A DNA stretch of 64,000 bases from an uncultured Acidobacteriota bacterium (GCA_963796275.1 CAWCKY010000001.1:864001-928000); one strand, 5' to 3'; shown: positions 4,192 to 51,109, numbered from the stretch's first letter. Notes: a model not told the origin generated them from the sequence alone. Program-made: numbers and translations.

Positions 4192-4295
4192 GACAGGAAG
4201 TTATCCCACAAAAACGGGGAATCAAGGGAAATAGAGCGTCTTTGTTTTCTATTTGTGCCATTTGTGTATTTTCTGTGTTTCGTGGTTACACTAGC

Positions 4296-28833: not shown

Positions 28834-30682
<1,849 letters not shown>

Positions 30683-30794
30683 GGAGAGTAGCAGGCAGTA
30701 CGCAGTAGGCTGCAGACGGCAGGCGGTTCGTTTAATTCGAAATCTCAGTTAAACGGACGGTCGGTCGGCTGTTGTCTGCTGCCTATTAATTTTT

Positions 30795-32325: not shown

Positions 32326-33609
32326 ATGAGTAATAGCGATTCAGTCAACAAACACAAGGATTATCTCTTCCCCGTCGTCTCGATGTACTACCGCGAACCG
32401 ATCGCGCTCGATCACGGCCAGGGGATGTACGTCTGGGATGAAAACGGCAAAAAATACCTCGATTGTTTCGGCGGAGTATTATCCACCAGCATCGGGCATG
32501 TCCATCCGCACGTGGTAGGGGCCATTACCGATCAGCTCAAAAAGATATCGCACACCTCAACGCTCTACGCGAGCAGACCGCAATCCGAACTGGCGCAGAA
32601 ATTGGCGGAAATAACCCCAGCGGGTCTCGAGAAGAGTTTCTTCACCAATAGCGGGACGGAGGCTGATGAGACCGCGACTATGGCGGCGAAACTTTATACG
32701 GGTCGACAGGAGATCATCACTCTTCGCCACAGCTACAGCGGGCGTTCGGCCGCGGCCATCACGGCATCGGGCCAGGCTCCGTGGAAGATACTGCCGGCGC
32801 AGGTGCCCGGCATTGTCCATGCGCCGGCACCGTATTGCTATCGCTGCCCGTTCAAGCTCAAATATCCGGAATGCGATCTCGCCTGCGCGAAAGATTTGAA
32901 GGAAGTGATCGAGACCTCGACCTCCGGAAAAATCGCCGCCTTCATGGCCGAACCGATCATGGGCGTCGGTGGATACATCACTCCGCCGAAAGAATATTTC
33001 AAAGAGGCCGTCGCCATCATCCGCCAGTACGGCGGAGTGTTCATTTGCGACGAAGTGCAGACCGGCTGGGGGAGAACCGGCGATAAGATGTTCGGGATAG
33101 AACATTGGGAGGTCGAACCGGAGATTATGACCTTCGCCAAAGGCATGGCGAACGGCACGCCTATCGGCGCTACGATAGCGCGGAAAGACATTGCAGATGC
33201 AATGTCGGCTATCTCATTTTCGACTTTCGGCGGCAATCCCGTGTCGATGCGCGCCGCGCTGGCTACCATCGAAGTCATCGAGCGCGAAGACCTGGCGCGT
33301 AACGCTCAGGTCACCGGCGATTACTTGCGCGAAAAACTTATGGGACTGCAAGAGCGGTTTGATGCGATCGGAGAGGTGCGGGGAATGGGACTGATGCAGG
33401 GGATAGAGTTCGTCAAGGACCGCAAGACGAAAGAGCCTTACCCGGAGGCCGTCTTGAAGGTTTTCGAAGAGACGAAGAAACGCGGCGTCCTCATCGGAAA
33501 GGGCGGGCTATATGGAAATGTTATCCGCATGGGCCCGCCACTGATCGCAACGAAAGATCATATCGACGAACTGGCTGCGGCGTTGAACGATGCGCTCGCG
33601 GCAATATAA
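32326..33609 (+). CDS. Class III PLP aminotransferase (AGXT2-like, probable beta-alanine aminotransferase)
   Basis: YLDCFGG, FTNSGTEA, DEVQTGWGRTG, TFAKGMANG and STFGGNP motifs; first gene of the pyrimidine catabolism operon. Confidence 0.88.
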   Translation: MSNSDSVNKHKDYLFPVVSMYYREPIALDHGQGMYVWDENGKKYLDCFGGVLSTSIGHVHPHVVGAITDQLKKISHTSTLYASRPQSELAQKLAEITPAGLEKSFFTNSGTEADETATMAAKLYTGRQEIITLRHSYSGRSAAAITASGQAPWKILPAQVPGIVHAPAPYCYRCPFKLKYPECDLACAKDLKEVIETSTSGKIAAFMAEPIMGVGGYITPPKEYFKEAVAIIRQYGGVFICDEVQTGWGRTGDKMFGIEHWEVEPEIMTFAKGMANGTPIGATIARKDIADAMSAISFSTFGGNPVSMRAALATIEVIEREDLARNAQVTGDYLREKLMGLQERFDAIGEVRGMGLMQGIEFVKDRKTKEPYPEAVLKVFEETKKRGVLIGKGGLYGNVIRMGPPLIATKDHIDELAAALNDALAAI

Positions 33610-33630
33610 AAATCTGGAGGCTGAAGAGAG

Positions 33631-33715
33631 AATCAGTACCGCGAGCGGTAGCGAGCGAATTTCCATTGCTGACCGATTGATGAAAACTCGCTCGCTACTG
33701 ATCGCGGTATTGATT
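33631..33715. repeat. REP-like palindromic element, copy 2
   Basis: aatcagtaccgcgagcggtagcgagcg ... cgctcgctactgatcgcggtattgatt. Confidence 0.8.
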
Positions 33716-33730
33716 CCGCTTAAGTAATCT

Positions 33731-35116
33731 ATGCGCACATTGATCAAAAACGGCCACATCGTCACTGCCGTAGATTCCTACACCGCCGACATTTTGATCG
33801 ACGGCGAAACGGTGGCGATGATCGGAAAAAACCTCTCGGAGGTCGCCGGTTCGATAGACAAAATGATTGACGCTACCGGGAAGCTGGTCATCCCGGGTGG
33901 CATCGATCCGCATACGCACATGGATTTGCCATTCGGCGGCACGTCAGCATCCGACGATTTCGAGACGGGCACGCGTGCGGCGGCTTTTGGCGGGACGACG
34001 ACGATCGTCGATTTTGCCGTTCAATACCATGGACAGGAACTAAACGAGGCGCTCGACGTCTGGTTCGGTAAAGCTGAGGGCAAAGCATCGATCGATTACG
34101 GCTTTCATATGATAGTGACCGATTTGCCGGACGAGCGGTTGCCCGGATTAAAGGGGCTGATCGATCAGGGGGTGACGAGCTTCAAATTGTTTATGGCTTA
34201 TCCCGGCGTCTTTCTCGTCGATGATGGAACTATCTTCAAGGCGATGTCGACCGCGGGCGAGTCGGGCGGTTTGATCTGTATGCACGCGGAGAATGGCGTT
34301 GTGATCGACGTACTCGTCAAACGCGCCTTGGCCGAAGGCAAGACTGGTCCGAAATATCATGCGCTCACTCGCCCGACAAAAGCCGAGGCCGAGGGCGTGC
34401 ACCGGGCGATAGCGATTGCGGAGATGGCCAATTCTCCGGTCTACATCGTGCATCTGAGCTGTTACGATGCTCTGAAAGAGGTTCAGGCCGCGCGCGACCT
34501 CGGATTACCAGCATTTGCCGAAACCTGCCCGCAATACCTGCTGCTCGATTACAATCGTTACGAACAGGAAGGATTTGAAGGGGCCAAATATGTGATGACC
34601 CCGCCGCTGCGCGATAAAGAGAATCAGGAGCTGCTCTGGCGCGGGCTGCGCGGCGACGATCTGCAGGTTATCTCGACCGATCATTGCCCGTTCTGTTTTA
34701 AAGAACAGAAAGAGCTGGGGCGCGATGATTTCAGTAAGATTCCGAACGGTGGGCCGGGGGTGGAAAATCGGATGAGTTTGATCTATCACCACGGAGTCGA
34801 AGCAGGGCGCATTAATTTGAATCGTTTTGTCGAACTTACTTCCACCGCTGCTGCCAAAATTTTCGGCCTCTTTCCGAAGAAAGGGACGATAGCGGTTGGG
34901 TCCGATGCCGATATCGTCATATTCGACCCGAACCGCGAGCAGATTATAAGTGCGGCGACCCACCATATGCGCGTGGATTACAGCGCTTATGAGGGATGGA
35001 AGGTCAAAGGTGTGGCCGAGGTGGTGTTGTCGAGAGGAAGAGCGATCGTAGAGAACGGCGTGTGGAAGGGCAAGGCCGGTGATGGTAGCTTTTTGAGGCG
35101 CGGGACTTTTGCATAA
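33731..35116 (+). CDS. hydA: Dihydropyrimidinase
   Basis: PGGIDPHTH, SFKLFMAY, MHAENG, YIVHLS, ETCPQY, STDHCPF and IPNG motifs. Confidence 0.95.
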   Translation: MRTLIKNGHIVTAVDSYTADILIDGETVAMIGKNLSEVAGSIDKMIDATGKLVIPGGIDPHTHMDLPFGGTSASDDFETGTRAAAFGGTTTIVDFAVQYHGQELNEALDVWFGKAEGKASIDYGFHMIVTDLPDERLPGLKGLIDQGVTSFKLFMAYPGVFLVDDGTIFKAMSTAGESGGLICMHAENGVVIDVLVKRALAEGKTGPKYHALTRPTKAEAEGVHRAIAIAEMANSPVYIVHLSCYDALKEVQAARDLGLPAFAETCPQYLLLDYNRYEQEGFEGAKYVMTPPLRDKENQELLWRGLRGDDLQVISTDHCPFCFKEQKELGRDDFSKIPNGGPGVENRMSLIYHHGVEAGRINLNRFVELTSTAAAKIFGLFPKKGTIAVGSDADIVIFDPNREQIISAATHHMRVDYSAYEGWKVKGVAEVVLSRGRAIVENGVWKGKAGDGSFLRRGTFA

Positions 35117-35274
35117 TTCGAAGTAAATGAATAAATGGAGAACTTATTGGAGCGAATAACCGTGACAGCACACTATCTCCCGGCCAGATAGCCATCCGGG
35201 CATCTGTTAATGAAAGCTTCGCGCTTGAATAGCGCACGGCTTGAATCGTTGTCGATATAAAGGGAACTTTTTAA

Positions 35275-36873
35275 ATGCGACCCAATATTGATCGCGAAGT
35301 CATTGAACACCCCGATGGGCGCGTCGAACTCCGCGATCATTCATCTATCAGCTCGAGTCCGCTATACAACAGCGATCTAGCGCCCGTGCCCGTCGCGAAG
35401 CGCAACTGGACTACCTACAACTATGCCGCCCTTTGGATCAGCATGGCGCATTGCATTCCGACCTACATGCTTTCGGCCGGCTTGATCACGGTAGGGATGA
35501 ACTGGTGGCAGGCGCTGTTCACCATCCTGCTCGGGAATACGATCGTTCTCATCCCCATTCTCCTCAACTCCCATCCGGGCACCAAGTACGGCATTCCCTT
35601 TCCGGTCTTCGCGCGCGCGAGTTATGGGACATACGGCTCCAATCTGCCGGCATTGATGCGTGCTCTCGTTGCCTGCGGATGGTTCGGGATTCAGGCCTGG
35701 ATCGGCGGCGAAGCCCTCAATGTCTTCTTGCGCGCGATCATACCCGGTTGGCATACGATGTTGGGCGGTCCGGTCAACGGGCACACGCCGACCGAGTGGA
35801 TATCATTCCTGCTCTTCTGGGCGCTGAATATCTACATTATCTATCGCGGTATGGATCTGCTGCGGTGGGTGGAGAATTGGGCTGCGCCATTCGTCCTGAT
35901 CATGACCGCGGGATTGCTTGTTTGGGCGGTATGGCGCGCTAACGGACTCGGTTATTTATTGGATGATTCCGGGCGATATCCGAGCCTCGGTGAATTTCTA
36001 CCGGTCTTCATCCCATCGTTAACTGCGATGATCGGCTTCTGGTCGACTCTATCCCTGAATATGCCCGATTTCACGCGCTTCGGGCGCAGCCAGCGCGAAC
36101 AGGCGGTCGGACAAATTATTGCCTTGCCGTCGACGATGACCGTCTTCGCCGCCATGAGCGTAGTCATCACCTCGGCGGCCGTAGTGATCTATCCGCATAT
36201 GAAAGCCGATCAATTGTGGGATCCGATGAAACTTACCGGACAGTTCGATAATGTGGCGGTCATCGCGGTTTCGATGTTCACGGTTGTCGTGGCGACGCTG
36301 GCGGTAAACATCGCAGCAAATGTGGTCTCTCCCGCCAACGATTTTGCCAATGCGTTTCCACACTGGATTTCGTTCCGCACCGGAGGATTGATAACGGGAA
36401 TCATCGGCATTTTGATGCAGCCCTGGAGACTTCTGGCCGACCCATCGGGCTATATTTTCAAGTGGCTGGTCGGGTATTCGGGCGGCCTCGGCTCGATTGC
36501 AGGGGTATTGATAGTCGATTACTGGCTGGTGCGGAATAAGCATCTGGCACTAGGTGATCTCTACCGCACTCAAGGTGTATACGCATACGCTCGGGGATGG
36601 AATTGGCGGGCGATCGCCGCCACCATCATCGGCTGCTCGCTGGCGTGGGGCGGTTTGATTCTCCCGGCGCTAGCGCCGTTATACAATTATGCCTGGTTCG
36701 TAGGATTCGGCTCATCGGCCGTCGTTCACTATGTTTTTATGAAATTGTTTCCCCCATACGAACATACGGGAGATCGGGAGAGCCGGGTACTGAATGAGTT
36801 AGATGAATCACTCTCATCTTCCGCCCCCCTCGCACACAACCCCGCTTCTTCTTCAACCATTACAAAGGACTAG
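35275..36873 (+). CDS. NCS1 nucleobase:cation symporter
   Basis: GTKYGIPFPVFARASYG, ACGWFGIQ, LSLNMPDFTRF and NIAANVVSP motifs; about 12 TM helices. Confidence 0.93.
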   Translation: MRPNIDREVIEHPDGRVELRDHSSISSSPLYNSDLAPVPVAKRNWTTYNYAALWISMAHCIPTYMLSAGLITVGMNWWQALFTILLGNTIVLIPILLNSHPGTKYGIPFPVFARASYGTYGSNLPALMRALVACGWFGIQAWIGGEALNVFLRAIIPGWHTMLGGPVNGHTPTEWISFLLFWALNIYIIYRGMDLLRWVENWAAPFVLIMTAGLLVWAVWRANGLGYLLDDSGRYPSLGEFLPVFIPSLTAMIGFWSTLSLNMPDFTRFGRSQREQAVGQIIALPSTMTVFAAMSVVITSAAVVIYPHMKADQLWDPMKLTGQFDNVAVIAVSMFTVVVATLAVNIAANVVSPANDFANAFPHWISFRTGGLITGIIGILMQPWRLLADPSGYIFKWLVGYSGGLGSIAGVLIVDYWLVRNKHLALGDLYRTQGVYAYARGWNWRAIAATIIGCSLAWGGLILPALAPLYNYAWFVGFGSSAVVHYVFMKLFPPYEHTGDRESRVLNELDESLSSSAPLAHNPASSSTITKD

Positions 36874-36881
36874 TTCAGTTT

Positions 36882-37751
36882 ATGGCACAGGTTGTCAAAT
36901 GCGGTCTTATTCAAGCAAAAAATGCGGCGCCAACCGATGCGCCGATCGAAGATATCAAGCGCGTCAATATTGAAAAACATCTGAAGATCATCGAGTCGGC
37001 CGCGCAACAGGGCGTAAAGATTCTCTGCATGCAGGAGGTCTTTACCACCCCATATTTTTGCGCCGAACAACAGGCGCGCTGGTATGAAGCGGTCGAGAGA
37101 ATTCCAGATGGACCTACAATCAGACTCATGCAGGACGTCGCGAAAAAGCACGGAATGGTTATTATCGTCCCGATTTACGAAGAGGAGATGACGGGTATCT
37201 ACTACAACACGGCCGCCGTCATCGACGCCGATGGGAGATATATAGGGAAATATCGCAAGACCCATATTCCGCACGTCGGGCCAGGCTTCTGGGAGAAGTT
37301 CTATTTCAAGCCCGGAAACCTGGGCTATCCGGCGTTCGAGACGGCTTTCGCGCGCATCGGGGTATATATCTGCTATGACCGGCATTTTCCCGAAGGTGCG
37401 CGCGCATTGGGGTTGAACGGCGCGGAGATAGTTTTCAATCCATCAGCGACGGTCGCCGGTCTCTCGGAATATCTCTGGAGGCTCGAACAGCCGGCTCATG
37501 CAGTGGCCAACGGCTATTTTATCGGTGCGATCAACCGCGTCGGTTACGAAGCGCCGTGGAATATCGGCGAGTTTTACGGCCAGAGCTATTTCTGCGATCC
37601 GCGCGGACAGACGATTGCGATCGCACCGCGCGATGAGGACGCGCTCGTCGTCGCCGACCTCGATCTCGCGATGATCCGCGAAGTGCGCAACACGTGGCAG
37701 TTTTTCCGCGACCGGCGACCCGAGACTTACCAGGCGCTGGTCGCCGAATAG
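36882..37751 (+). CDS. Beta-ureidopropionase (carbon-nitrogen hydrolase)
   Basis: QEVF, YRKTHIPH, WEKFYF, ICYDRHFPE and WQFFRDRRP motifs; operon context. Confidence 0.88.
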   Translation: MAQVVKCGLIQAKNAAPTDAPIEDIKRVNIEKHLKIIESAAQQGVKILCMQEVFTTPYFCAEQQARWYEAVERIPDGPTIRLMQDVAKKHGMVIIVPIYEEEMTGIYYNTAAVIDADGRYIGKYRKTHIPHVGPGFWEKFYFKPGNLGYPAFETAFARIGVYICYDRHFPEGARALGLNGAEIVFNPSATVAGLSEYLWRLEQPAHAVANGYFIGAINRVGYEAPWNIGEFYGQSYFCDPRGQTIAIAPRDEDALVVADLDLAMIREVRNTWQFFRDRRPETYQALVAE

Positions 37752-37818
37752 TTTTCAGCTTTTAGTTTTCAGTTGGGCCGTCTCGATCGACAACTGAAAA
37801 CTGAATACTGAAAACTAT
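37748..37818. repeat. Heptamer-periodic inverted repeat (AAAACTG family) overlapping the upstream stop codon
   Basis: atagttttcagcttttagttttcagttg ... caactgaaaactgaatactgaaaactat. Confidence 0.85.
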
Positions 37819-37838
37819 TTTTGAGGAGCTTATTATCT

Positions 37839-38834
37839 ATGCTCGAATACGCCATCACCTTTAAGCCTGAAATGACCGCGGAGCACATAGTCGGCTTAAC
37901 CAGACAGGCAGAGGCTGCCGGTTTCAGTCACGGCTGGATTTTCGATTCTCACGTATTGTGGCAGGATCCTTACCCTCTGCTCACTTTGATGGCCGTGAAT
38001 TCGAGGACGATGCGATTAGGCACCTGCGTGACCAATCCCGCGGTGCGTGACGCGACTGTGACGGCCAGCCTGCTCGCGACGCTCAATCGTATCTCCGGCG
38101 GCAGAATGGACCTAGGCATCGGGCGCGGGGACAGCTCCCGGCGCGTTATGGGTAAAAGGCCAACGACGCTGGCCGATCTGGAAAATTGTGTACAGGTAAT
38201 TCGTGATCTCTGTGCGGGCAAACAGATTGTGTACGAAGACAACCCGATCCAGATGGCCTGGGCGGACGCCGGCGTCCCGCCTGTATGGATCGCCGGATAT
38301 GGCCCGAAGGCGCTGCGTTTAGCGGGACGCATCGGCGATGGCGTAATTCTGCAATTCGCCGATCCTCATTTGATCAAATGGTGTCTGGGTTTCGTCCGAG
38401 AAGGCGCGGAAGAGAGCGGTCGCGATTATTCCCGGATAAAGGTAATGGCCGCCGCTCCGGTATGGGTTTCATCCGATCTCGCAGAGGCGCGCGATCGCGT
38501 CCGCTGGTTTCCCGCGCTCGTCTCCAACCATGTGGTCGATCTCGTCTCTCGCTATAAGCTAGAAGAGCTGCCGCCGGAGCTGACCGCATACGTCCGTGAT
38601 CGCAAAGGTTATAACTATTTGCATCACGCGGAGGTGGGCAGCGACAACGCACAGTTTGTGACGGATGAAGTTGTTGATCGTTTCTGTCTAGTCGGTCCGG
38701 TTGAAGAACAAGTGAGACGATTGAGGCAGCTCGAAGAGATCGGCGTGACGCAATTCAACATCTATCTTATGTGCGGCGATGAAGAGCAGACCGTTGAAAT
38801 ATATGGCGACGGAGTGATCCCGCCATTTAGATAA
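37839..38834 (+). CDS. LLM-class, probably F420-dependent, oxidoreductase (TIGR03842-like)
   Basis: WIFDSHVLWQDP, VTNPAVRD, GIGRGDSSRR, AGYGPKAL and WFPALVSNHV motifs; GAGGAG RBS before ATG 37839. Confidence 0.85.
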   Translation: MLEYAITFKPEMTAEHIVGLTRQAEAAGFSHGWIFDSHVLWQDPYPLLTLMAVNSRTMRLGTCVTNPAVRDATVTASLLATLNRISGGRMDLGIGRGDSSRRVMGKRPTTLADLENCVQVIRDLCAGKQIVYEDNPIQMAWADAGVPPVWIAGYGPKALRLAGRIGDGVILQFADPHLIKWCLGFVREGAEESGRDYSRIKVMAAAPVWVSSDLAEARDRVRWFPALVSNHVVDLVSRYKLEELPPELTAYVRDRKGYNYLHHAEVGSDNAQFVTDEVVDRFCLVGPVEEQVRRLRQLEEIGVTQFNIYLMCGDEEQTVEIYGDGVIPPFR

Positions 38835-38840
38835 AGCTGT

Positions 38841-40442
38841 TTATAACCTGACGGCCACGCCGCTACCAGGCTCCACCTGACTCTCGCCGCGGACTGTCAA
38901 TTTACCTCCGACGATCACATATTCAACCCCCACCGGGTATTGCATTGAATCATCGAATGTCGCGCGGTCGATAACTCGGTCAGGATCGAAGACGACCAGA
39001 TTTGCCCGGGCGCCCGCTTCGATCTTCCCGTAGCCCTTGATCCGGAAAGTTTCCGCGGCGAGACACGACATCTTGCGCACCGCCTCCTCGAGGGTGAGCA
39101 GCGACTGTTCGCGCGCATATCGGCCGAGAATGCGCGGGTATGTGCCATAAGCCCGCGGATGCGGTTTGCCGCTGAGCAGCCCATCTGTGCAGACATTGAC
39201 ATAGGGTTCTCGCATTATCTTCCGCACCACATCTTCCGATTGGCTGAACGAGATCATTCCGACGCCCATTTTCTCGTCCAAGAGCAGCTCGAGGGCGAAC
39301 TCGGCGGCCTCTTCTTCACTCACCATATCTACCTGTTTCCTCAAACTCGCAGCCTGCGTGAGGTTCTTGCCGATATAACCGGGATGTTGACCGGATGCGA
39401 TGTCGGAGATGACGATGCCCTCCGGCCCCGACCACTTCCAGAAATTATCCCATTTCGACTGCGATCGATCGAGCATCTCGCTCCGCATGCGCCCGCGCTC
39501 GTCTCTGCTGGCCAGACGCGCCAGGGTAGCTGCAACACCCCCGGCGTGCACCCATGGCGGAAGAATTGCACCAAGCATCGTTGAGCCCGCTACATATGGA
39601 TATTGATCTGCAGTCAGCGTCACGCCCGCAGCCTGAGCGATACGGATCGTCTCCAGCACGCGGTCGATCGTCGTCCAGTTCTCTCGCCCTGCCGCCTTGA
39701 AATGTGAGATATGGACGCGAACGCGTGACTCCCTACCCACCTCTATCATCTCCGCCACGGCATCTTCGAGGTAATCGCTTTCGCTGCGCATATGGGCCAC
39801 GAAGATGCCATTCGATTCGGCAACTGTCCGGCACAGATCGATCAACTCGGAAGTATCGGCATAGCAGCACGGCGGATAGATCAATCCGGTCGAGATGCCG
39901 AGCGCGCCTTCGCGCATTCCCTGGCGGATTTGCTGCTGCATGGCATCGATCTCCGCGCGCGTAGCCCGCCGATCTTCCATTCCCATAGCATTTAATCGTA
40001 TCGCCCCGTGCGGGATAAGATAGGAATAGTCGAGCGCAGGTCCGGCATTTCCCACCGCAGAAAGGTACTCAGCCACCGATTCCCAGTCCCATTCGCGATG
40101 CAGACGACCGAGCAATCCGGCCAGCGCGCTCTGCATTTGGGGCCGGTCAGCTACACGGATTGGCGCAACCGAGATCCCATCCTGACCGAAGACTTCGAGC
40201 GTGATTCCCTGCCGCACTTTCATGGGAAGTTCCGGCTCTGCGATGATACGCAAATCCGAATGGCTATGTGTGTCGATGAATCCGGGCGCGATGATCATCC
40301 CGGAGCAGTCAATTTCCGCGTCGCCGTGGAGTGAAGTTTCCGCATCAATCGCCGCGATTCGGTTGTTGGCGATCGCCACGTCGGCGTGATAGCGCGGGCG
40401 GCCGGTGCCATCGATTACAGTTCCATTTTTGAGTAGGTACAT
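38841..40442 (-). CDS. N-acyl-D-amino-acid deacylase family amidohydrolase
   Basis: PGFIDTHSHSD, HMRSE, HISHFK, DQYPY and HPRAYGTYPR motifs; start placed at MYLLKNG. Confidence 0.88.
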   Translation of the reverse strand: MYLLKNGTVIDGTGRPRYHADVAIANNRIAAIDAETSLHGDAEIDCSGMIIAPGFIDTHSHSDLRIIAEPELPMKVRQGITLEVFGQDGISVAPIRVADRPQMQSALAGLLGRLHREWDWESVAEYLSAVGNAGPALDYSYLIPHGAIRLNAMGMEDRRATRAEIDAMQQQIRQGMREGALGISTGLIYPPCCYADTSELIDLCRTVAESNGIFVAHMRSESDYLEDAVAEMIEVGRESRVRVHISHFKAAGRENWTTIDRVLETIRIAQAAGVTLTADQYPYVAGSTMLGAILPPWVHAGGVAATLARLASRDERGRMRSEMLDRSQSKWDNFWKWSGPEGIVISDIASGQHPGYIGKNLTQAASLRKQVDMVSEEEAAEFALELLLDEKMGVGMISFSQSEDVVRKIMREPYVNVCTDGLLSGKPHPRAYGTYPRILGRYAREQSLLTLEEAVRKMSCLAAETFRIKGYGKIEAGARANLVVFDPDRVIDRATFDDSMQYPVGVEYVIVGGKLTVRGESQVEPGSGVAVRL

Positions 40443-40627
40443 ACGCAATTTTTCATCACCCATCAGGCAATTTGTCGGGTTACCGCGCGGGGCATGTAAG
40501 CTAGCTGGTGAATTATCTATTCCCGGCACGTTTCGAGCTTTGAATTACCGGTGAAATGAACATCGCCGTCGATACACGGGTATTTCGTCACTCTGAGCTC
40601 GTCATTCCATTCATAACAAAAATATTT

Positions 40628-41497
40628 TCAGTAACCGGTCAAGGGCCCATACATCTCAGGCCGCCGGTCGCGATAGAACTGCCAGTGTGTCCGTACTTCG
40701 CGAATCTCATCGAGGTTGAGATCGGCCACTATCAGTTCGTCCTTGTCCTCGCTGCCTTTGGCGAGAATACGGCCATCGGGGTTGCAGAAATATGAAGAGC
40801 CGAAGAATTGGCCGACGTTCCATGGGGCCTCTGTCCCCACCCGGTTGATCGTACCGACGAAATAACCGTTGGCGACGGCGTGCGAGCGCTGCTCCAAATC
40901 CCACAGGTAATCGGCGTGCCCCTTGGTCGTCGCTGAAGGAATGAAGACTATTTCTGCGCCGTTCAACCCCAATGCGCGCGCGCCTTCGGGGAAGTGGCGG
41001 TCGTAACAGATGTAAACGCCGATTCGCGCATATTTGGTCGCGAAAGTCGGAAATCCCAGATTGCCGGGCGTGAAGTAGAACTTCTCCCAGAAACCCGGCA
41101 GGCAATGAGGTATATGAGTCTTGCGATATTTCCCCAGATATTTTCCATCGGCATCGATGACCGCCGCCGTGTTGTAATAGACACCGGTCATCTCTTCTTC
41201 GTAGATCGGAGAAATAATTACCATCTGATGTTCTTTCGCGATTTCGCACATCAGCTGCGTCGTCGGCCCATCGGGGATGCGTTCCACCAGGTCATACCAG
41301 TGTGGATTCTGCTCGGCGGGAAAATATGGACCATAAAAAAGCTCCTGCAAACAGATGATCCGAACCCCCTGCCGGGCGGCATCTGCAATCATCGATATGT
41401 GTTTATCGATCATCGCTTTTTTTATCTGTTCGATCGGGCTTTCGGTGGGCTCGCTGTTCGCGGCCTGAATCAAACCGCATCTGACGATACGAGACAT
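40628..41497 (-). CDS. Second ureidopropionase-like carbon-nitrogen hydrolase
   Basis: Close paralog of 36882-37751, with QELF, YRKTHIPH, ICYDRHFPE and WQFYRDRRP. Confidence 0.88.
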   Translation of the reverse strand: MSRIVRCGLIQAANSEPTESPIEQIKKAMIDKHISMIADAARQGVRIICLQELFYGPYFPAEQNPHWYDLVERIPDGPTTQLMCEIAKEHQMVIISPIYEEEMTGVYYNTAAVIDADGKYLGKYRKTHIPHCLPGFWEKFYFTPGNLGFPTFATKYARIGVYICYDRHFPEGARALGLNGAEIVFIPSATTKGHADYLWDLEQRSHAVANGYFVGTINRVGTEAPWNVGQFFGSSYFCNPDGRILAKGSEDKDELIVADLNLDEIREVRTHWQFYRDRRPEMYGPLTGY

Positions 41498-41520
41498 TGC
41501 TTCAATCCTCCCTGGAAAAT

Positions 41521-41574
41521 AGTGTTTTCAGTTGTTGATTGTGGTCCAAGGTACTGAAACTGAAAACTGAAAAC

Positions 41575-41575
<1 letters not shown>
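41521..41575. repeat. Heptamer-periodic repeat/hairpin (AAAACTG family) abutting the LLM stop codon
   Basis: gttttcagttg ... actgaaactgaaaactgaaaact. Confidence 0.7.
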
Positions 41576-42572
<997 letters not shown>

Positions 42573-42594
42573 GTCTGGTCCTCTCTACTCGATC

Positions 42595-43917
42595 TCACAA
42601 ACGTTCCCAAAGTCTCTTAGCCAACTCACGGCTTCTTGCGGTGATCTCAGCCTCGTCAAGAAACAGTAAGCGCCGGTCTTTCATCAATACCTTGCCCGCG
42701 CAGATGGTCGCCGTAATCATCGAATTCTCAAACCCGAAGAGCATATGCCATGGCAGATTGTCGGCATTGAGCGGTGTGGTCGGATGATAGTCCACGAAAA
42801 TGAGGTCGGCGAATGCGCCTGGTGCCAGCACTCCGATCGGGGCTGGCGGGAATAACGCGCCCGCGAGCGCCGCGTTATTGGTCACGGCCATCTCGGCGAT
42901 GGTGTTACCGCTCATCCGGCGCGGGTCACGGTGTGCCGCCTTGTGATGGAGGTAGGCCGCTTTCCATTCATCCCACATCGCATTTGAAAAACCGTCATTT
43001 CCCAGGCATGCCTTCACCCCGCAGCGTAGCATTCCCTCGACATCCGCTGCGCCCACAGCGTTGTTCATGTCAGAGCGCGGTTGATGTGTGACCCAGGTGC
43101 CGGTCTCGCGCAATATTTCCGCTTCGTGGTTATCGATGTGCACGCAGTGCGCGGCGATGGAACGAGGGCCGAGAATGCCAAATTTATTGAGGCGATCGAT
43201 AACGCGCAGGCCCCCCTTTTTCAGACTATCTTGCTGATCGGATTCGTGCTCCGCCGCGTGGATGTGAAAGCCGCCGTCGTGAGCATTGCGGCACGCCTCG
43301 AGCGTTTTATCCGAAAGCGTGAAAGAGGCGTGCAGGCCGAAGGTGGCAGTAATTGCCGATTGCGGATTCCGGTTTGCAGATCGGATGAAGCGGATATTTT
43401 CCTCAATACCTGCCCGGGCTTTCTCCTGGCCGTCGCGGTCGGTGACTTCATAGCAGAGGCAGGCGCGCAGACCGGCTTGTTCGACCGCCTCGGCGATCGC
43501 ATCCAATGAACCGGCGATGGCATTAGGGGACGCGTGATGATCGATGAGCGTAGTCGTGCCGTGCCTCACTGCGTCTATCAAACATAACAGGGCGCTGTGG
43601 CGCACGTCCTCGAGCGTGAGAGCTTTATCCAGCTTCCACCATAAACGCTCCAGGATTTCCGGGAAATTTTTCGGCGCTGCGCCCGGGATCGCCATACCGC
43701 GCGCGAAGGCGCCGTAGAAATGAGTATGCGCGCAAATGTTACCGGGCAGCACGAACTGTCCGCGCGCACCGATGACTTCGGCCTGCGGATACCTGGTGCG
43801 CAGATCGACTGATGGGCCGAGATCAACAATTCGGTCACCTTCAATGAACAGGGCATGGTTATCAAGAATCAGGTTCGGTGAGCCCCAGGTGATAAGCGTT
43901 GCATCAGTTATCAGCAT
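42595..43917 (-). CDS. ssnA: SsnA-like amidohydrolase
   Basis: CAHTHFYG, FPEILERLWWKLD, GTTTLIDHHASP, CYEVTDRDG, GLHASFT, HIHAAE and LGNDG motifs; ATG at 43917. Confidence 0.85.
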   Translation of the reverse strand: MLITDATLITWGSPNLILDNHALFIEGDRIVDLGPSVDLRTRYPQAEVIGARGQFVLPGNICAHTHFYGAFARGMAIPGAAPKNFPEILERLWWKLDKALTLEDVRHSALLCLIDAVRHGTTTLIDHHASPNAIAGSLDAIAEAVEQAGLRACLCYEVTDRDGQEKARAGIEENIRFIRSANRNPQSAITATFGLHASFTLSDKTLEACRNAHDGGFHIHAAEHESDQQDSLKKGGLRVIDRLNKFGILGPRSIAAHCVHIDNHEAEILRETGTWVTHQPRSDMNNAVGAADVEGMLRCGVKACLGNDGFSNAMWDEWKAAYLHHKAAHRDPRRMSGNTIAEMAVTNNAALAGALFPPAPIGVLAPGAFADLIFVDYHPTTPLNADNLPWHMLFGFENSMITATICAGKVLMKDRRLLFLDEAEITARSRELAKRLWERL

Positions 43918-43919
43918 GG

Positions 43920-44330
43920 TCAGCGTGCATGTTTCATATGCTCTTTCAGTATGCAGCGATCCATCACTACCATCAGGCCCGCAGCTCGAGCCCTGTCCGC
44001 CGCTGCCTGATCGATAACGCCCTCCTGCAGCCAAACGGCTTTCATACCCAAACGGATCGCTTCGTCAACATGGGTTCCCGCTTCTTCCGAGCGGCGAAAG
44101 ATGTCTACCAGGTCGACCCTCTCCGGTATTTCAGCCAGCGTCGAATAGGCCCGCTCGCCAAGTATTTCTGTTTCGGCTGGATTGACGGGAATGATGCGGT
44201 AACCGTATTTCTGCATATAACGCGCCACTCCGTAACTCGGGCGGTACGGATTGGACGACAACCCTACGACGGCAATCGCCTTGCATTCTTCGAGGATTTG
44301 TATAATGACTGCAGTATCATTGATATTCAT
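43920..44330 (-). CDS. CoA-binding protein (YccU family)
   Basis: IAVVGLS..PYRPSYGV, PVNP, VDIFRRSE, VWLQEG and VVMDRC motifs. Confidence 0.92.
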   Translation of the reverse strand: MNINDTAVIIQILEECKAIAVVGLSSNPYRPSYGVARYMQKYGYRIIPVNPAETEILGERAYSTLAEIPERVDLVDIFRRSEEAGTHVDEAIRLGMKAVWLQEGVIDQAAADRARAAGLMVVMDRCILKEHMKHAR

Positions 44331-44346
44331 CTTAAATTCTCAAATC

Positions 44347-47300
44347 TCAAATCTCAAATCTCATATGGTGTTCCTGTAGACTGATTACGCTCAGCTTCTC
44401 ATGCCGCATCGCGGCAATTGCGCTCGCCGCCGCATTGGCTCCCGTCAGCGTTGTGAAAGTGACGACGTTGTACTGCATTGCAGCGCGGCGAATAGCCTTC
44501 TCATCGTAAAAAGACGAACGCCCGAGTGGAGTATTGACGATCAAATCGATCTCATCGCTCTTGATCAGGTCGACGACGTTCGGACGTCCTTCGTTGACCT
44601 TATAAACGCGGTCGCAGGGGACGCCCGATTCATTCAGGAAGCCTGCCGTACCGCGCGTCGCGATGATTTTGAATCCGAGCTCGTGCAAACGCTTGGCTAT
44701 GCGAACTGCGTTCTTCTTGTCATTGTCGTTGACGCTGATGAAAGCGGTGCCTTCGAGCGGAAGGCTGGCGTTCGTCCCCATCTGCGCTTTGGCGAAGGCC
44801 AGGCCGAAACTATCGGCCATTCCCATCACCTCCCCGGTCGACCGCATCTCAGGCCCCAGAACAGGGTCGACTCCCGGGAATTTGTTGAATGGAAAAACCG
44901 GTTCTTTGATGAAGAAGCTGTTGACCTTCAGTTCATCGGGCAACTGGAACTCGCTCAATTTTCGCCCGGTCATCACCAGAGCGGCGATCTTCGCGAGCGG
45001 GACGCCCGTCGCCTTCGAAACGAAAGGTACCGTGCGCGAAGCCCGCGGGTTCACTTCGAGGACATAAACGATGTCATCTTTGATTGCAAATTGAATGTTC
45101 ATCAGCCCGCGTACCTCGAGCGCACTCGCAAGCTGGCGTGTGTACCTGCGCATTGTTTCAACATGTTCGGGCTTGACCATGTATGGCGGCAGCACGCACG
45201 ACGAATCGCCGGAATGAATCCCCGCCTCTTCGATGTGCTCCTGAATGCCCGCGATCACGCATCGCGAGCCGTCGGCGAGCGCGTCGACGTCGACCTCAAA
45301 TGCGTCCTCGAGAAAACGGTCTATCAGCACGGGCTTCTCCGGCGAGGCTTCGACGGCGTTTTTCATGTAGCTTTCCAGGCTCGCTTCGTCGAAGGCGATC
45401 ATCATCGCGCGCCCTCCCAGAACGTAACTCGGACGAACGAGTACTGGATAACCGATCGATGCTGCGACGTGCTTCGCATCCTCGACCGTCACCGCCGTAC
45501 CGTTGACCGGTTGCGGAATATGCAGATCGGCGAGCAGTTTGCCGAAGCGTTTGCGGTCTTCCGCCAGATCTATCGATTCGGGGCTGGTGCCGATGATGGG
45601 CACGCCCGCCTGTTGCAATCGCATCGCGAGATTCAATGGCGTCTGACCGCCGAACTGAACTATGACGCCGTCCGGTCTCTCCAGTTCGACGATGTGCATG
45701 ACGTCTTCAAAAGTTAGGGGCTCAAAGTAGAGACGATCGGATGTGTCGTAATCTGTTGAGACGGTCTCCGGATTGCAGTTGACCATGATGGTCTCGAATC
45801 CGGCATCTTTCAGCGCAAATGATGCGTGACAGCAGCAGTAGTCGAACTCGATCCCCTGGCCGATGCGGTTGGGACCTGAACCGAGTATGGCGATCTTCTT
45901 ACCATCCCTGGGTCCGGCTTCACATTCGCTCTCATAAGTAGAATAGAGGTAGGGAGTGAAAGACTCGAATTCAGCGCCGCAGGTGTCAACCCGCTTATAG
46001 ACCGGTTTGATGCCCTCGGCCTGGCGCCTTGCGCGGACCTGGTCCTCGCCGCATTTGAGCAGGTCTGCCATCCGCACATCGGAGATGCCCATCCGCTTCG
46101 CCTGATAAAGCCGTTCAGCGGAGAGCGATGTCAGGCTCTCCTGCTTAAGATCATTTTGAAAATCGGCGATCTGTTTGAGCTGAGTCAAGAACCACCGATC
46201 GATGCTCGTCAATTCGTAGATTTCATCCAGCGTCCAGCCGCGCTCGAAGGCCGCATTCAAATAATGTATGCGCTCAGCATTGGGGATTATCAGTTTGCGG
46301 CGCAGGGTCTCATCGTCAGGATATCCGGTGAAGGCCGGTCCGCGATTTTCCAATGAGCGCACTCCTTTGAGAAAAGCTTCCTTGAAAGTGCGGCCGATGG
46401 CCATCACCTCGCCCACTGATTTCATCTGCGTACCGAGACTATCTTCGACGCCGGGAAATTTCTCGAACGCCCACTTGGGGATTTTGACCACGATATAGTC
46501 GATCGTCGGTTCGAATGATGCCGGAGTCTTCTTCGTGATGTCGTTCGGGATTTCATCCAGGGTATAACCGACCGCGAGCTTAGCGGCGATCTTCGCGATC
46601 GGAAAGCCCGTGGCTTTTGAAGCCAGGGCCGATGAACGCGACACGCGCGGGTTCATTTCGATGACCCGCAAATCTCCGTTGCGCGGATTCACGGAAAATT
46701 GGATATTAGATCCGCCCGTCTCGACGCCGACTTTGCGAATGATCTTGATGGCGGCGTCGCGCATTATCTGATATTCGCGATCGGTCAGCGTCTGCGCGGG
46801 AGCCACGGTTATCGAGTCGCCGGTGTGCACGCCCATCGCATCGAAGTTTTCGATCGAGCAGATGATGACGACGTTGTCGGCCAGGTCGCGCATCACTTCA
46901 AGCTCGTATTCCTTCCACCCGATGATCGATTCTTCGACCAGTATTTCGCTGATCGGACTGGCTGTGAGACCGCGCTCGGCGATCTCCTCAAGCTCTTCGC
47001 CGTTATAAGCAATGCCGCCGCCGGTGCCGCCGAGCGTGAAGCTCGGCCGGATGATTATCGGGAAGTTGGTCTCTTCGGCGGCCACCAGCGCTTCCGCCAT
47101 GGTGCGGCAGAACCTGGCCTTGGGCATCTGCAACCCTATCTCATCCATCGCTTTTTTGAACAGCAGGCGATCTTCGGCGATTTTGATGGCATCAAGTTTG
47201 GCGCCTATCAATTCGATTCCGTATTTTTCAAGCACGCCTGATTCGGCTAGCTTGACGGTCAGATTCAAAGCGGTCTGTCCACCGACGGTCGGCAGCAGGG

Positions 47301-47553
47301 CGTCTGGCCGTTCGCGTTCGATGATGGCAGTCAGCGTCTCGACTGTAAGCGGTTCGACATAGGTTCGGTCGGCTAATTCCGGATCAGTCATTATCGTGGC
47401 TGGGTTGGAATTGACCAGAACTACATTGAAGCCCTCCTGTCTGAGCGCCTTGCACGCCTGAGTTCCGGAATAATCGAACTCGCAAGCCTGACCGATGACG
47501 ATCGGCCCGGAGCCAATGATGAGAATCTTATTTAGATCAGTTCGTTTGGGCAT
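44347..47553 (-). CDS. carB: Carbamoyl-phosphate synthase large subunit
   Basis: Starts [24 protein letters not shown]; two ATP-grasp halves and a C-terminal MGS domain. Confidence 0.98.
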
Positions 47554-47639
47554 TCCTTGAAGATTTTCGATTTGAAATTTGGTTTTGAACTACAAAAGTA
47601 TCATAAGGAGGCAGTAGAAGAGGAGGACGCAGAAGAAAA

Positions 47640-47731
47640 TTTTAAATTTTAGATTTGACATTTTAGATTTTAGATTTAGAAGATAAATCTAAAATCTAAA
47701 ATCTAAAATCTAAAATCTAAAATCTAAAATC
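47640..47731. repeat. Heptamer tandem array (AAAATCT)n with inverted (AGATTTT)n arm
   Basis: ttttagattttagatttag ... aaatctaaaatctaaaatctaaaatctaaaatctaaaatctaaaatc. Confidence 0.9.
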
Positions 47732-47742
47732 GTATTCTGTCT

Positions 47743-49821
47743 TTACACTTCTTCGCGCTTGCGCAATCTCAATTCGGCGAGTTTCCATCGTGGCCAGTTC
47801 GATGTACGGTTGTAACGGCTGTTAGCTTGCGCCAGGCCGTCGACGCGCGTTGAACTGCAATGTGGGCAGATACCGTGTAGACCGCGCGACAACTTTTGAC
47901 AGACATTGCAAACCGTAAATTCCGGTGAAATAGTTAATGCAGATACTTCTGTTCGATGGTATGCATGAGCGATGATCGAAGCCAGATAATCGGATGACGG
48001 GAGTCCGACCCCCAGCCAGAGATCGGTGGTCGCATTCCAGACTTGACCTCCCTGCAGTGCGCCTTCAATTTCGATTTTTTCGGTTGCGCTGATTTCGGTC
48101 GCCACCGGCAGTTTGACGGAGTTGGTGTAGAAGACCTCTTCCTCATCCAGGTTTCCGATCGACTGAGGGACAATCGTGGGACCGAATTTTCTGACATCGA
48201 GGCGCGCGAGCCGGTGCGGAGCAATGATGTCGTGCGACTCTGCGATCAGGAATCGGACTTTATGTTTGGCCGATAGACGTTCGGCTTCTGCGTTGAGATG
48301 AGTCACGACGCGTCTGGCAAAATCACGGCTGGCGAGAGAATCTATGAGCGAAGAGCCGGTCACGGTCTCAGTCATTTCGGCGAGACCGACCGGGCAGATG
48401 GCGTGTGCGGTCCAACTCAGCGGTATGAACGGTTCCTTGTCCGGGCGCATTGCAAGCATTGCCAGTACGCCTGCCTCACCGCGAGCGAGCAGCTTCTCCA
48501 GGAAAACCCTCTTTTCCAGCGACGCCTGGGCCGCAAGTTCGAGAAGAGATGTCAAAAGCTCGAATACCTTTACCTGGTTGAATTCAGAACGGTAGCCGAC
48601 GCGCGGAAGATTTATCGCAACCGATGAGAAGATGGCCGCACGCCACTGCCAGCTATCGCCCGCCCTTTGCAGCTTGTCCGCGCCTACGCCGTAGCGCGCG
48701 GTGAACACCGATTCATCGCTGTTGTTCGGGTTCGTTCTATCGAAAGCCAGCACGACGCCGCCGCGCTCGCTCGCGACGCGGGTTACGAGATCGAGGAAAC
48801 CACGGTTTCCGGGATTGGCTATGAATTGTTCGTTCAAATGGAGGATCGGACGCGGCCCAATGAATGAGAATCCCTGGCCGTCGCCTTCGAGATAGACCTC
48901 GAACAATATTTTGAGGAAAGTGCGCGCGACTTCGCCCACCGAACCGTAGCTGATGCTGAGTTTCTCGCCTCCCGCGCCTACTATCGGTAGCTTGAGGAGG
49001 TAAGAAGGCGCATCCCAATCCAGGTGCAGGTCGCATCGCACCGGTTGCCCCCCGCGCGCGATCGTCGGGGCAGAAAGCTCGAACAATAATTTTTGTGCGA
49101 GCTGCCTCATCTCTCGCTGGTTGAGACCTACAAGCATCGGTGCGAGCGCGAAGTTGACCGAATCCCACGCGAGCGCATCGCTGAAATACCCCTGTAAGGC
49201 CGCGCTCAGCGTGACGAAATGTGACGCCAGCACCTCGGGCCGTTTGGCCGGGCGCGACCCCGCGAATCCACCCGGCAGCTTGATACCGTGGCGTTTGATG
49301 AAATCGATTGTGCCGATCATGTTCGACGGACGGTCGACTTCTCCCAGGTTTTCAATATGAAAATCGCCTTCCAGATGGGCATTCGCCACGGCATCCGAAA
49401 AAACATAGAGCATGGCGAACTCGCGTTTGATCGCTTCAGCCAGAGCGAGGCTCGTGCCCTCAGGCCCGTGCACTACGGCTGATTCGCTCGACACCGATTG
49501 GATGATGCGGTCTACGTCATAGACCGGAACGCCCAATCTCGAGTGCGCGCTGTATTCAGTCATTAATCCGTATTCGAGCAGCTTTGCATCAACGAGCCCG
49601 CGGATCAGCGGCGCGGTCAGCGCCCGGATGCCGGAGCGTTCTATCTGTTCTTTGACCTCGTTAGCGATCTGTTGCGCGATCTCCGGCGCCAGATTGGTTT
49701 CGCGTACAAGAGCATCGGTTATGCGTTGAGGATCGAAACGCGCATATTTCTCATCCGATTGTCTGACGAGCAGTTCGGATTCGGTCAGGGTGATATTTAC
49801 TTTTTCCTGAAGTATATTCAT
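47743..49821 (-). CDS. Class III anaerobic ribonucleotide reductase (NrdD) homolog with ATP cone, predicted catalytically inactive
   Basis: ATP cone (FDPQRITDALVRET..LTAPLIR), AHLEGDFH, ARGGQ, INLPR, YTNS, SPEFTVCNVC and CPHC are present. The glycyl-radical loop and active-site Cys are substituted. Confidence 0.85.
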   Translation of the reverse strand: MNILQEKVNITLTESELLVRQSDEKYARFDPQRITDALVRETNLAPEIAQQIANEVKEQIERSGIRALTAPLIRGLVDAKLLEYGLMTEYSAHSRLGVPVYDVDRIIQSVSSESAVVHGPEGTSLALAEAIKREFAMLYVFSDAVANAHLEGDFHIENLGEVDRPSNMIGTIDFIKRHGIKLPGGFAGSRPAKRPEVLASHFVTLSAALQGYFSDALAWDSVNFALAPMLVGLNQREMRQLAQKLLFELSAPTIARGGQPVRCDLHLDWDAPSYLLKLPIVGAGGEKLSISYGSVGEVARTFLKILFEVYLEGDGQGFSFIGPRPILHLNEQFIANPGNRGFLDLVTRVASERGGVVLAFDRTNPNNSDESVFTARYGVGADKLQRAGDSWQWRAAIFSSVAINLPRVGYRSEFNQVKVFELLTSLLELAAQASLEKRVFLEKLLARGEAGVLAMLAMRPDKEPFIPLSWTAHAICPVGLAEMTETVTGSSLIDSLASRDFARRVVTHLNAEAERLSAKHKVRFLIAESHDIIAPHRLARLDVRKFGPTIVPQSIGNLDEEEVFYTNSVKLPVATEISATEKIEIEGALQGGQVWNATTDLWLGVGLPSSDYLASIIAHAYHRTEVSALTISPEFTVCNVCQKLSRGLHGICPHCSSTRVDGLAQANSRYNRTSNWPRWKLAELRLRKREEV

Positions 49822-49876
49822 GTGTTGGGGAGCGATAGCACAAATATTTTAGCGATCGGCGAAAAGAGATCGCCTT

Positions 49877-50677: not shown

Positions 50678-51109
50678 GATAAAGATCTACTCCTCAGCAC
50701 GAAGCCGAGACATTCGTTTAGTGGGATTTCATTCTTTAGGTGCTTACCTGTGCCGGAAGAAGCGCTAATACTACTCAATTCTTGGGGCGTATTAGCTACC
50801 TCAATCAGCTTCCGTATCGACCAACCGATCGGATACACGTTATCTGGTGGGTTCGTCCACGGATAATAGCATTATATTGGGTAGTGGTAAAGAGAAGGAC
50901 TATTCGGGGGGTAAAAGAGAGAGAGAGATTCCATGTCTACGGATTTAACCACACCCCTGAATTTACCGCTAAAGAATTAAAAGCTCGGATTGTGATTGAG
51001 TGTGATGAACGATAATTCTGAAGGATTGTGGCCTATGGTGGATGGGAGGAAATATCGACGGATTTGCCCCCCCGGTTTGGCGAATTACTTGAGCGGGGTG
51101 CGCAGTCCA

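Follow-up and report, generated by a model that had tools for sequence, protein, structure and literature searches.

A candidate reductive urate degradation cluster with an F420-type luciferase-like reductase in an uncultured Acidobacteriota bacterium

Introduction

The reductive degradation of urate in gut anaerobes was elucidated as recently as 2025, and the biochemistry of the YgfK, SsnA, HyuA, UacY, YgeY, and YgeX steps has been published (PMC12507026; bioRxiv 10.1101/2025.04.24.650524). UacY of the Clostridioides difficile pathway, a member of the D-aminoacylase family, was shown to cleave the 2-ureido group (Li et al., PMC12507026). The main text of the same study (Li et al., 2025, Life Metab) also describes Chloroflexota ssnA clusters without YgfK and UacX, for which a coenzyme F420 "luciferase-family" reductase was predicted from neighbourhood networks only. 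Here, we analyzed a stretch of 64,000 nucleotides (CAWCKY010000001.1:864001-928000, hereafter the window) from the genome of an uncultured Acidobacteriota bacterium (GCA_963796275.1, the source genome). Four genes of its minus strand (38841-43917) are transcribed in the order ssnA, a luciferase-like (LLM) oxidoreductase gene (LLM2), a CN hydrolase gene (CNH2), and a UacY-like amidohydrolase gene. An original prediction, made from this sequence, had taken them for a candidate undescribed purine or modified-base pathway in which the LLM replaces YgfK and the nitrilase-type CN hydrolase takes over decarbamoylation. We consider it probable that the cluster encodes the middle of a reductive urate (2,8-dioxopurine) degradation route, in an Acidobacteriota variant with an F420-type LLM as the reductase.

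Results and Discussion

Gene content of the cluster and proposed route

The product of ssnA (42595-43917, minus strand) scored 506.6 bits with TIGR03314 (cut-off 455.5) and 527.8 bits with PRK07203 (cut-off 444). As judged by these two curated equivalog/subfamily cut-offs it is an SsnA family protein, and it is predicted to open the six-membered ring of a reduced purine. It is the sole copy over the cut-off in the source genome and shares 34% identity with Escherichia coli SsnA over its full length. LLM2, which resembles Mer-like F420-type luciferase-like oxidoreductases, is present as two open reading frames (ORFs) on the minus strand, an N-terminal part of 91 codons (42297-42572, PF00296 positions 20-100) and a C-terminal part of 241 codons (41575-42300, PF00296 positions 101-313). 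It is followed on the same strand by CNH2 (40628-41497; PF00795, 213 bits), a beta-ureidopropionase paralog proposed to be a 3-ureido (albizziin) amidohydrolase, and by the UacY-like gene (38841-40445, longest ORF to 40529; PF07969, 86.2 bits), which encodes a D-aminoacylase-family amidohydrolase proposed to act as the 2-ureido hydrolase.

The proposed steps were modelled on the chemistry of the enzymes from E. coli, C. difficile, and Clostridium sporogenes (PMC12507026; bioRxiv 10.1101/2025.04.24.650524). An XdhD-like molybdenum enzyme would convert urate to 2,8-dioxopurine, whose pyrimidine ring would be reduced by LLM2 with F420H2, a step carried out by YgfK in E. coli and by UacX in C. difficile. 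SsnA would then open the reduced six-membered ring to yield a ureido-hydantoin, and the single D-hydantoinase of a converging operon (33731-35116, plus strand; TIGR02033, 633 bits, cut-off 393), a candidate shared opener of hydantoin rings, would produce 2,3-diureidopropionate. The UacY-like enzyme would take off the 2-ureido group and CNH2 the 3-ureido group of albizziin, as YgeY does in E. coli. Finally, a ThrC-like pyridoxal-phosphate (PLP) enzyme would probably convert diaminopropionate to pyruvate and ammonia. Being 2-amino-3-ureidopropionate, albizziin would be a natural substrate for a duplicated beta-ureidopropionase.

Genes for the outer steps were found elsewhere in the source genome. 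At C1:818-823.5 kb, 86 kb from ssnA, we observed orthologs of the genes located ahead of ssnA in a closed relative (locus L038), namely an XdhD-like Fe-S/Mo protein (87% identity; TIGR03311, 828.1 bits for a cut-off of 830.45) and two PLP enzymes, one CysK/SbnA-like (81%) and one ThrC-like (76%, split). A three-subunit xanthine dehydrogenase is encoded beside them. Orthologs of YgfK, YgeW, YqeA, YgeY, and YgeX were not found in the source genome; the only match to YgeX, a weak cross-match to the ThrC-like PLP gene, was rejected.

Comparison with described pathways

The E. coli layout given in the original prediction, in which ssnA neighbours ygfK and lies close to hyuA and ygeWXY, agrees with the K-12 record. 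With the E. coli urate pathway, the proposed route shares SsnA, a HyuA-type hydantoinase (43.5% identity), an XdhD-type Fe-S/Mo enzyme encoded in the genome, and the chemical order, which is to reduce, open one ring, open the other, remove two ureido groups, and deaminate. Unlike in E. coli, LLM2, the UacY-like enzyme, CNH2, and probably the ThrC-like PLP enzyme would take the places of YgfK, YgeW, YqeA, YgeY, and YgeX. Since YgeW and YqeA were not found, there would be no carbamoyl phosphate route and no gain of ATP would be expected. As in C. difficile, where UacX is PydA-like, the 2-ureido group would be removed hydrolytically by a PF07969 D-aminoacylase-type enzyme and not through YgeW/YqeA (PMC12507026). 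However, compared by family and not by sequence, the reductase in the window is an LLM and not of the DHO_dh type, a CN hydrolase stands in for YgeY, and an Asp replaces a D-aminoacylase Cys. LLM2 has a fold unrelated to YgfK and UacX, so what we propose is the same job and not membership of their families. The reductive pyrimidine pathway (PydA/PreTA, dihydropyrimidinase, beta-ureidopropionase) follows the same logic, CNH2 being a 69% identical duplicate of the beta-ureidopropionase in the converging operon, and the hydantoinase may serve both routes. It differs in that SsnA is the ring-opener here and that a bicyclic substrate would leave two ureido groups to remove.

The Chloroflexota clusters are also among the closest described systems. 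They contain an LLM of the same subfamily, with 73-86% identity to LLM2 of the window across 240 residues, and the same pairing with ssnA. In contrast, the F420-supply genes lie outside the cluster in the source genome, the LLM gene is followed by those of a nitrilase paralog and a UacY-like enzyme, and the phylum is different. The replacement of YgfK by an LLM is thus already in print for Chloroflexota (PMC12507026) and cannot be called undescribed, as it had been at first. The words Acidobacteri, nitrilase, and PF00795 do not occur in the main text of Li et al. (PMC12507026). This study, in its two versions, was the sole work in the literature searched that names both SsnA and F420. Judged from literature listings, we found no paper on acidobacterial use of F420 in purine breakdown. 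Hence, the core idea is a published prediction, and what our comparisons would add is the acidobacterial form, the nitrilase in the place of YgeY, the exclusion pattern between reductases, a Chloroflexota-like ssnA, and a family that keeps the tail of F420 biosynthesis without an Fo synthase.

Neighbourhoods of LLM2 and exclusion of YgfK

Relatives of LLM2 occur in at least 579 species genomes. The best 80 loci were kept for analysis and belong, by record title, to Acidobacteriota/Blastocatellia and, mostly, to Chloroflexota. An ssnA gene was present in 40 of these 80 loci, and in 37 of the 49 that have at least 7 kb upstream of LLM2, while YgfK was found in none of the 80. The usual order in Chloroflexota was ssnA, Fno, CofE, (PNPOx-like), FbiB-type nitroreductase, CofD, CofC, and LLM2, often followed by a YgfM-like FAD protein, an XdhD-like protein, and XdhC. 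Overall, 23 of the 80 loci carry xanthine dehydrogenase-family or XdhC genes. CNH2 (at least 80% identity) comes after LLM2 in six of the 80 loci, all of the acidobacterial type; a UacY-like gene is next in five of them and the sixth locus ends too early. In L038, genes for the XdhD-like protein, two PLP enzymes, SsnA, LLM2, CNH2, and the UacY-like enzyme follow each other in one direction, and XdhD-like, UacY-like, and PLP genes are contiguous with ssnA in L038, L133, and L127-L129. Two other loci (L048 and L056) combine LLM2 and ssnA with adjacent genes for YgeY, YgeW, and YqeA. Several acidobacterial relatives also carry small nucleotidyltransferase and HEPN/HepT pairs (toxin-antitoxin type) inserted between ssnA and LLM2 or elsewhere in the cluster (L052:9085-9716; L042:7981-8376 and the next ORF; L038:2223-2531).

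A sample of 201 genomes from the class of the window, including the source genome, was searched with an ssnA threshold of E <= 1e-90. LLM2 was detected in 59 genomes and ssnA in 66 (42 of them above the curated cut-off), with 53 genomes holding both, six LLM2 alone, and 13 ssnA alone. Among the 66 ssnA genomes, 53 had LLM2, 11 had a YgfK-N type reductase, none had both, and two had neither. The YgfK-N protein (650-760 amino acids) matches YgfK positions 4-400 at 366-402 bits and was present in 11 of the 13 genomes with ssnA alone; none of the 59 with LLM2 had it. Its gene adjoins ssnA in two genomes, and the one protein inspected (L131:1290-3236) has 4Fe-4S motifs and no NAD(P)H/FAD domain. 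We also noted that this short YgfK form was confined to ssnA genomes without LLM2 and CofD (11 class genomes). The linkage to ssnA, the lack of YgfK around LLM2, and the exclusion of YgfK-N from LLM2 genomes all support, on comparative grounds, the proposal that the LLM stands in YgfK's place.

An ortholog of the UacY-like protein was found in 67 of the 201 genomes, 62 of which have ssnA, and all 67 hold ssnA or LLM2. We fetched 13 class loci, hand-picked from the matches in this sample. In nine, ssnA, CNH2, and the UacY-like gene occur together, and six of those nine also have LLM2. CNH2 adjoins ssnA or the UacY-like gene in nine of the 13. Three loci of the YgfK-N type have ssnA, CNH2, UacY-like, and XdhD-like genes in a row, and one locus has YgeY, YqeA, and YgeW in place of CNH2 and the UacY-like gene. 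The ThrC-like PLP gene adjoins ssnA in eight of the 13 loci, and the sole locus with a YgeX ortholog lacks it. CNH2 and the UacY-like gene stay with ssnA across three families, whichever reductase is present. These contents suggest that a reductase module (LLM2 or short YgfK) and a decarbamoylase module (CNH2 and UacY-like, or YgeY with YgeW/YqeA) swap independently around ssnA. They also lend comparative support to the idea that the nitrilase, together with the D-aminoacylase-type enzyme, takes over decarbamoylation. The three computational comparisons that had been proposed along with the original prediction all came out in its favour.

LLM2 family and F420 supply

The best solved relatives of an intact LLM2 ortholog were F420-dependent methylenetetrahydromethanopterin reductases (Mer; E 5e-42), which are also the nearest curated relatives (176-185 bits). 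At E <= 1e-20, all NCBIfam matches of LLM2 (9 to 13) were F420-type LLM families. Unlike Mer, LLM2 scores under the Mer cut-offs (276 and 348.7 bits), occurs in genomes that are not those of methanogens or methylotrophs, and has a context of purine catabolism. On these family comparisons, LLM2 is a member of an unnamed, very conserved F420-type LLM subfamily. It is distinct from the other LLM of the window (LLM1), as had been noticed from the start, since TIGR03842 scored 423.8 bits for LLM1 and 84 for the intact LLM2 ortholog.

F420-supply genes (CofC, CofD, CofE, Fno, or FbiB-type nitroreductase) were present in 54 of the 80 LLM2 loci, with CofC directly upstream of LLM2 in 34. In the class sample, CofD was found in 54 of the 59 LLM2 genomes, compared with 0 of the 11 YgfK-N genomes. 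In the source genome we found CofC, CofD (split), two copies of CofE, and Fno, but no CofG. CofH-like genes of this genome were rejected as Fo synthase and assigned to the futalosine pathway; they fell below the cut-off, and one lies beside a menaquinone (futalosine) gene. The same pattern extends to the family of the window (f1), with CofD in 44 and CofG in one of 55 genomes, compared with 46 and 43 of 49 genomes in the sister family f6. CofG was also found in none of five LLM2 genomes reached through their loci, including one closed chromosome and two Chloroflexota. Family f1 thus seems to make F420 without an Fo synthase of its own, either by scavenging Fo or via another synthase.

The hydrolases

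CNH2 is 69% identical to CNH1, the CN hydrolase of the converging operon, in agreement with its description as a close paralog of the ureidopropionase, and its best solved relatives are beta-ureidopropionases (E 2e-63). The motifs said to distinguish the paralogs (PHVGPG and PHCLPG; ATVAGLSEY and ATTKGHADY) were exact. PHCLPG and T(K/A)GH(A/S)(D/E)Y occurred in seven of seven CNH2-type rows, compared with PHV(G/A)PG and VAGLSEY in two of two CNH1-type rows, and the Glu-Lys-Cys columns were invariant across the aligned CN hydrolases. The UacY-like protein matched D-aminoacylase structures (E 3e-78 for 1m7j and 1e-77 for 3gip). Its HxH motif, the His residues of HMR and SHxK, and the Asp of (S/T)DGL align with positions of the D-aminoacylase metal site in the A. 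faecalis structure, and the Cys of that site is Asp.

The D-hydantoinase of the plus-strand operon is the single copy in the source genome. A hydantoinase was present in 61 of the 66 ssnA genomes, usually as one copy far from ssnA, and in 156 of all 201 (a count that includes G135 and G204, flagged unpublished); it was found in none of the 13 fetched ssnA clusters. That the two gene sets share this enzyme, as had been suggested, is plausible, this being the only D-hydantoinase in the genome and related to HyuA, although none of the 13 fetched clusters includes one and the same family contains ordinary dihydropyrimidinases. The mirror layout of the two sets did not hold as a conserved feature; the hydantoinase lies far from ssnA in most relatives, and the arrangement is particular to some family members.

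The split LLM2 gene

A +2 frameshift (GC) at about 42301, which puts the two ORFs of LLM2 in different frames, had gone unnoticed in the original prediction. The site (42297-42303, minus strand) has the two extra bases beside a GATC. Intact homologs (331-342 amino acids) read straight through the join, both halves are 93-94% identical to them with no other defect, and a 2-base gap marks the frameshift when the nucleotide sequence is aligned with that of L038, the nearest locus. The counterpart of LLM2 is in one frame in all 80 related loci. Similarly, in the class sample it forms an open frame of at least 330 amino acids in every other genome having one, except for one partial match. Two relatives have contigs that span the site without the extra GC (X2, 56 differences in 885 bases; X4, 23 in 298), and 100%-identical pieces in two sequencing runs (X1, X3) end short of it. 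None of the runs contains the entire stretch, and no RNA run is listed among them. A programmed frameshift was rejected because the 80 homologous loci read through. Only one of the 48 ORFs in the window is split. Five other genes of the source genome are broken by frameshifts or stops, encoding CofD (C1:543614-544521), the ThrC-like PLP enzyme (C1:822299-823514), methylmalonate-semialdehyde dehydrogenase (L121:286-1768), and two amidohydrolases (C7:790964-792267; C6:927048-928530). The CofD junction is at a G-run plus GATC, with an in-frame TGA, and the ThrC-like PLP junction is in an A-run. GATC occurs about once per 131 bases in this genome, so its presence at junctions is suggestive and no proof. 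Overall, the comparisons make an assembly error quite probable as the cause of the LLM2 break.

Alternative explanations

If the 2-base insertion in LLM2 and the breaks in CofD and the other genes were real, the cluster would be a decaying remnant, with the reductase step and the F420 supply lost and the remaining genes forming no working route. The breaks in LLM2 and CofD, the latter with its in-frame TGA, fit such decay, as do those in the ThrC-like PLP gene (beside the XdhD-like gene) and in the methylmalonate-semialdehyde dehydrogenase gene; moreover, none of the reads or contigs from this strain extends across the break in LLM2. We regard this as unlikely, if far from negligible, since the LLM2 halves are otherwise undamaged, the splitting touches a single ORF of the window, and the gene is open nearly everywhere else. 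The junctions at GATC (LLM2, CofD) and in an A-run (PLP gene) are also as with systematic long-read base-calling errors.

The ssnA-LLM2 pair could instead act on another N-heterocycle, with the two hydrolases trimming its ureido products. This might be a pyrimidine- or hydantoin-like compound, or else urate or xanthine, which F420H2, with its low potential, would reduce directly. XDH-family (xanthine dehydrogenase) or XdhC genes lie within 10 kb in just 23 of the 80 LLM2 loci and none in the window, SsnA is distant from the assayed E. coli enzyme, and SsnA scores in family f6 only reach the curated cut-off or fall slightly short of it, all of which would leave room for such a substrate. We find it improbable, because SsnA of the window passes both curated cut-offs and the XdhD-like gene is contiguous with ssnA, CNH2, and the UacY-like gene in the loci of family f9, L038, and L133. 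Furthermore, genes of the known pathway (YgeY, YgeW, YqeA) sit beside LLM2 in L048 and L056, and the two reductase types are mutually exclusive in ssnA genomes. As for the modified base once suggested as a substrate, nothing points to one. LLM2 might otherwise be dependent on flavin mononucleotide (FMN), or act in making or recycling F420, so that its place in F420 clusters would reflect cofactor metabolism. In Chloroflexota, the Fno, CofE, nitroreductase, CofD, and CofC genes are indeed flanked by ssnA and LLM2, CofG was not found in the two Chloroflexota genomes tested, and LLM2 exceeds no curated family cut-off. However, its NCBIfam matches at E <= 1e-20 are all of the F420 type and its nearest structures are Mer enzymes. 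Acidobacterial LLM2 sits with ssnA, CNH2, and the UacY-like gene far from F420 genes, and family f6 carries LLM2 in 37 of 49 genomes despite having CofG in 43. An amidohydrolase combined with a hydride-transfer enzyme would also, as we see it, give no route to the deazaflavin ring. This explanation is very improbable in our view.

Several observations weigh against assigning the cluster to reductive urate degradation. The assignment draws on comparative evidence, and genomes of one class are kin, so that our counts overstate independence. Six LLM2 genomes have no detected ssnA, and 12 of the 49 assessable LLM2 loci also lack it. With LLM2 over no curated NCBIfam cut-off (best 178.8-184.9 bits, compared with 276), the use of F420 is suggested by its relatives and its context. 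An Fo synthase was not found in the source genome, and CofG is nearly absent from family f1, so F420 would depend on scavenged Fo. LLM2 being split in the assembly, the pathway may be dead in this strain. The XdhD-like and PLP genes lie outside the window, and the UacY-like protein has an Asp (GQDG[IVL]S) in place of the metal-binding Cys in GNCGIS of D-aminoacylase in 12 of 12 orthologs. Lastly, the role of the hydantoinase in the pathway is an assumption, given that none of the 13 fetched ssnA clusters contains one and D-hydantoinases are common in genomes without ssnA.

The converging operon and neighbouring genes

The original prediction had the four minus-strand genes converging on a plus-strand operon, and this arrangement was confirmed. 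The stop of LLM1 (38834) lies 6 bases from that of the UacY-like gene (38841), so the two gene sets converge. The plus-strand set (32326-38834) encodes an aminotransferase, the D-hydantoinase, an NCS1 permease, CNH1 (36882-37751, a beta-ureidopropionase and the paralog of CNH2), and, as its last gene, LLM1 (37821-38834). A histidine kinase and a sigma-54 response regulator are encoded ahead of it (28834-32222). The source genome had no PreT match and its PreA match reached only 30%, and we consider LLM1 a candidate for an enzyme of the F420 type that substitutes for dihydropyrimidine dehydrogenase; the literature searched held no paper on such a substitute. The TIGR03842 LLM occurs in 85 of the 201 class genomes and, apart from G060, only in families also holding CofD. 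It lies within 18 kb of the single hydantoinase in at least 35 class genomes.

Upstream of ssnA, with 2 bases between them, is a gene for a CoA-binding protein (43920-44330, minus strand; PF13380), for which there is adjacency only. It falls outside the conserved set, as it is not beside ssnA in related loci and is 8 kb off on the opposite strand in L039. Intergenic gaps from carB to the UacY-like gene range from 2 to 182 bases. carB itself is 16 bases upstream of the CoA-binding gene, with nrdD (anaerobic ribonucleotide reductase) farther upstream (44347-49821, minus strand), and no carA was seen beside carB there. In the region 27000-51000, no Rfam match was obtained at gathering scores, hence no riboswitch was found. 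A sigma-54 consensus scan gave 28 matches for 26.2 expected, none convincing in intergenic regions, and a sigma-70 and terminator scan (38000-50800) gave counts at or below those of shuffled sequences.

Elsewhere in the window, we observed an agmatine deiminase gene with a third CN hydrolase gene (3148-5183, minus strand; N-carbamoylputrescine amidase type, 41% identical to CNH2), an ordinary polyamine pair. Two large STAND-type genes, one with NB-ARC and TPR and the other with NACHT, were also present (23502-26219 and 54436-57342, both on the minus strand). A gene for an NpmA-like 16S rRNA (adenine1408-N1) methyltransferase (19659-20285, minus strand) scored 209.6 bits with PF24675 (cut-off 60). 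This family is known for aminoglycoside resistance.

Origin of the genes

A quick maximum-likelihood tree, with E. coli SsnA as the root, placed the SsnA proteins of family f1 (eight rows, support 95) within successive Chloroflexota clades (96-99), apart from other acidobacterial SsnA proteins. Forcing the acidobacterial proteins together cost 145.7 log-likelihood units (approximately unbiased test, p-AU 3e-32) for a group that was named after the tree was seen. In the LLM2 tree, monophyly of Acidobacteriota was not rejected (p-AU 0.535), so that a joint transfer of LLM2 with ssnA is not shown. Between families f1 and f6, identity was 86-90% for CNH2, 69-76% for the UacY-like protein, and 61-65% for LLM2.

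Putting these data together, a broader scenario can tentatively be drawn, which we hold to be possible but somewhat doubtful as a whole. LLM2 would reduce the purine ring with F420H2 and so allow the reductive urate pathway to operate in soil Acidobacteriota and Chloroflexota that respire oxygen, and family f1, which keeps CofC, CofD, CofE, and Fno, would hang on scavenged Fo. Its ssnA would have come from Chloroflexota by lateral transfer and joined acidobacterial hydrolases, one of them an albizziin amidohydrolase born by duplication of a beta-ureidopropionase.

Conclusion

The window adds a phylum-level variant and sharper comparative support to a published prediction. For the engineering of strains that degrade urate, the swapped enzymes would be obvious candidates. 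If LLM2 is an F420-dependent reductase, the reductive urate route would be common in large soil phyla as well, given the wide occurrence of LLM2 relatives. If the proposal is true, the pathway would be built of exchangeable modules, with three reductase types and two decarbamoylase sets. It would also assign coenzyme F420 a specific part in the catabolism of Acidobacteriota and Chloroflexota, provide a function for an unnamed LLM subfamily, and imply a cofactor dependency, through cross-feeding of Fo, across a whole acidobacterial family.

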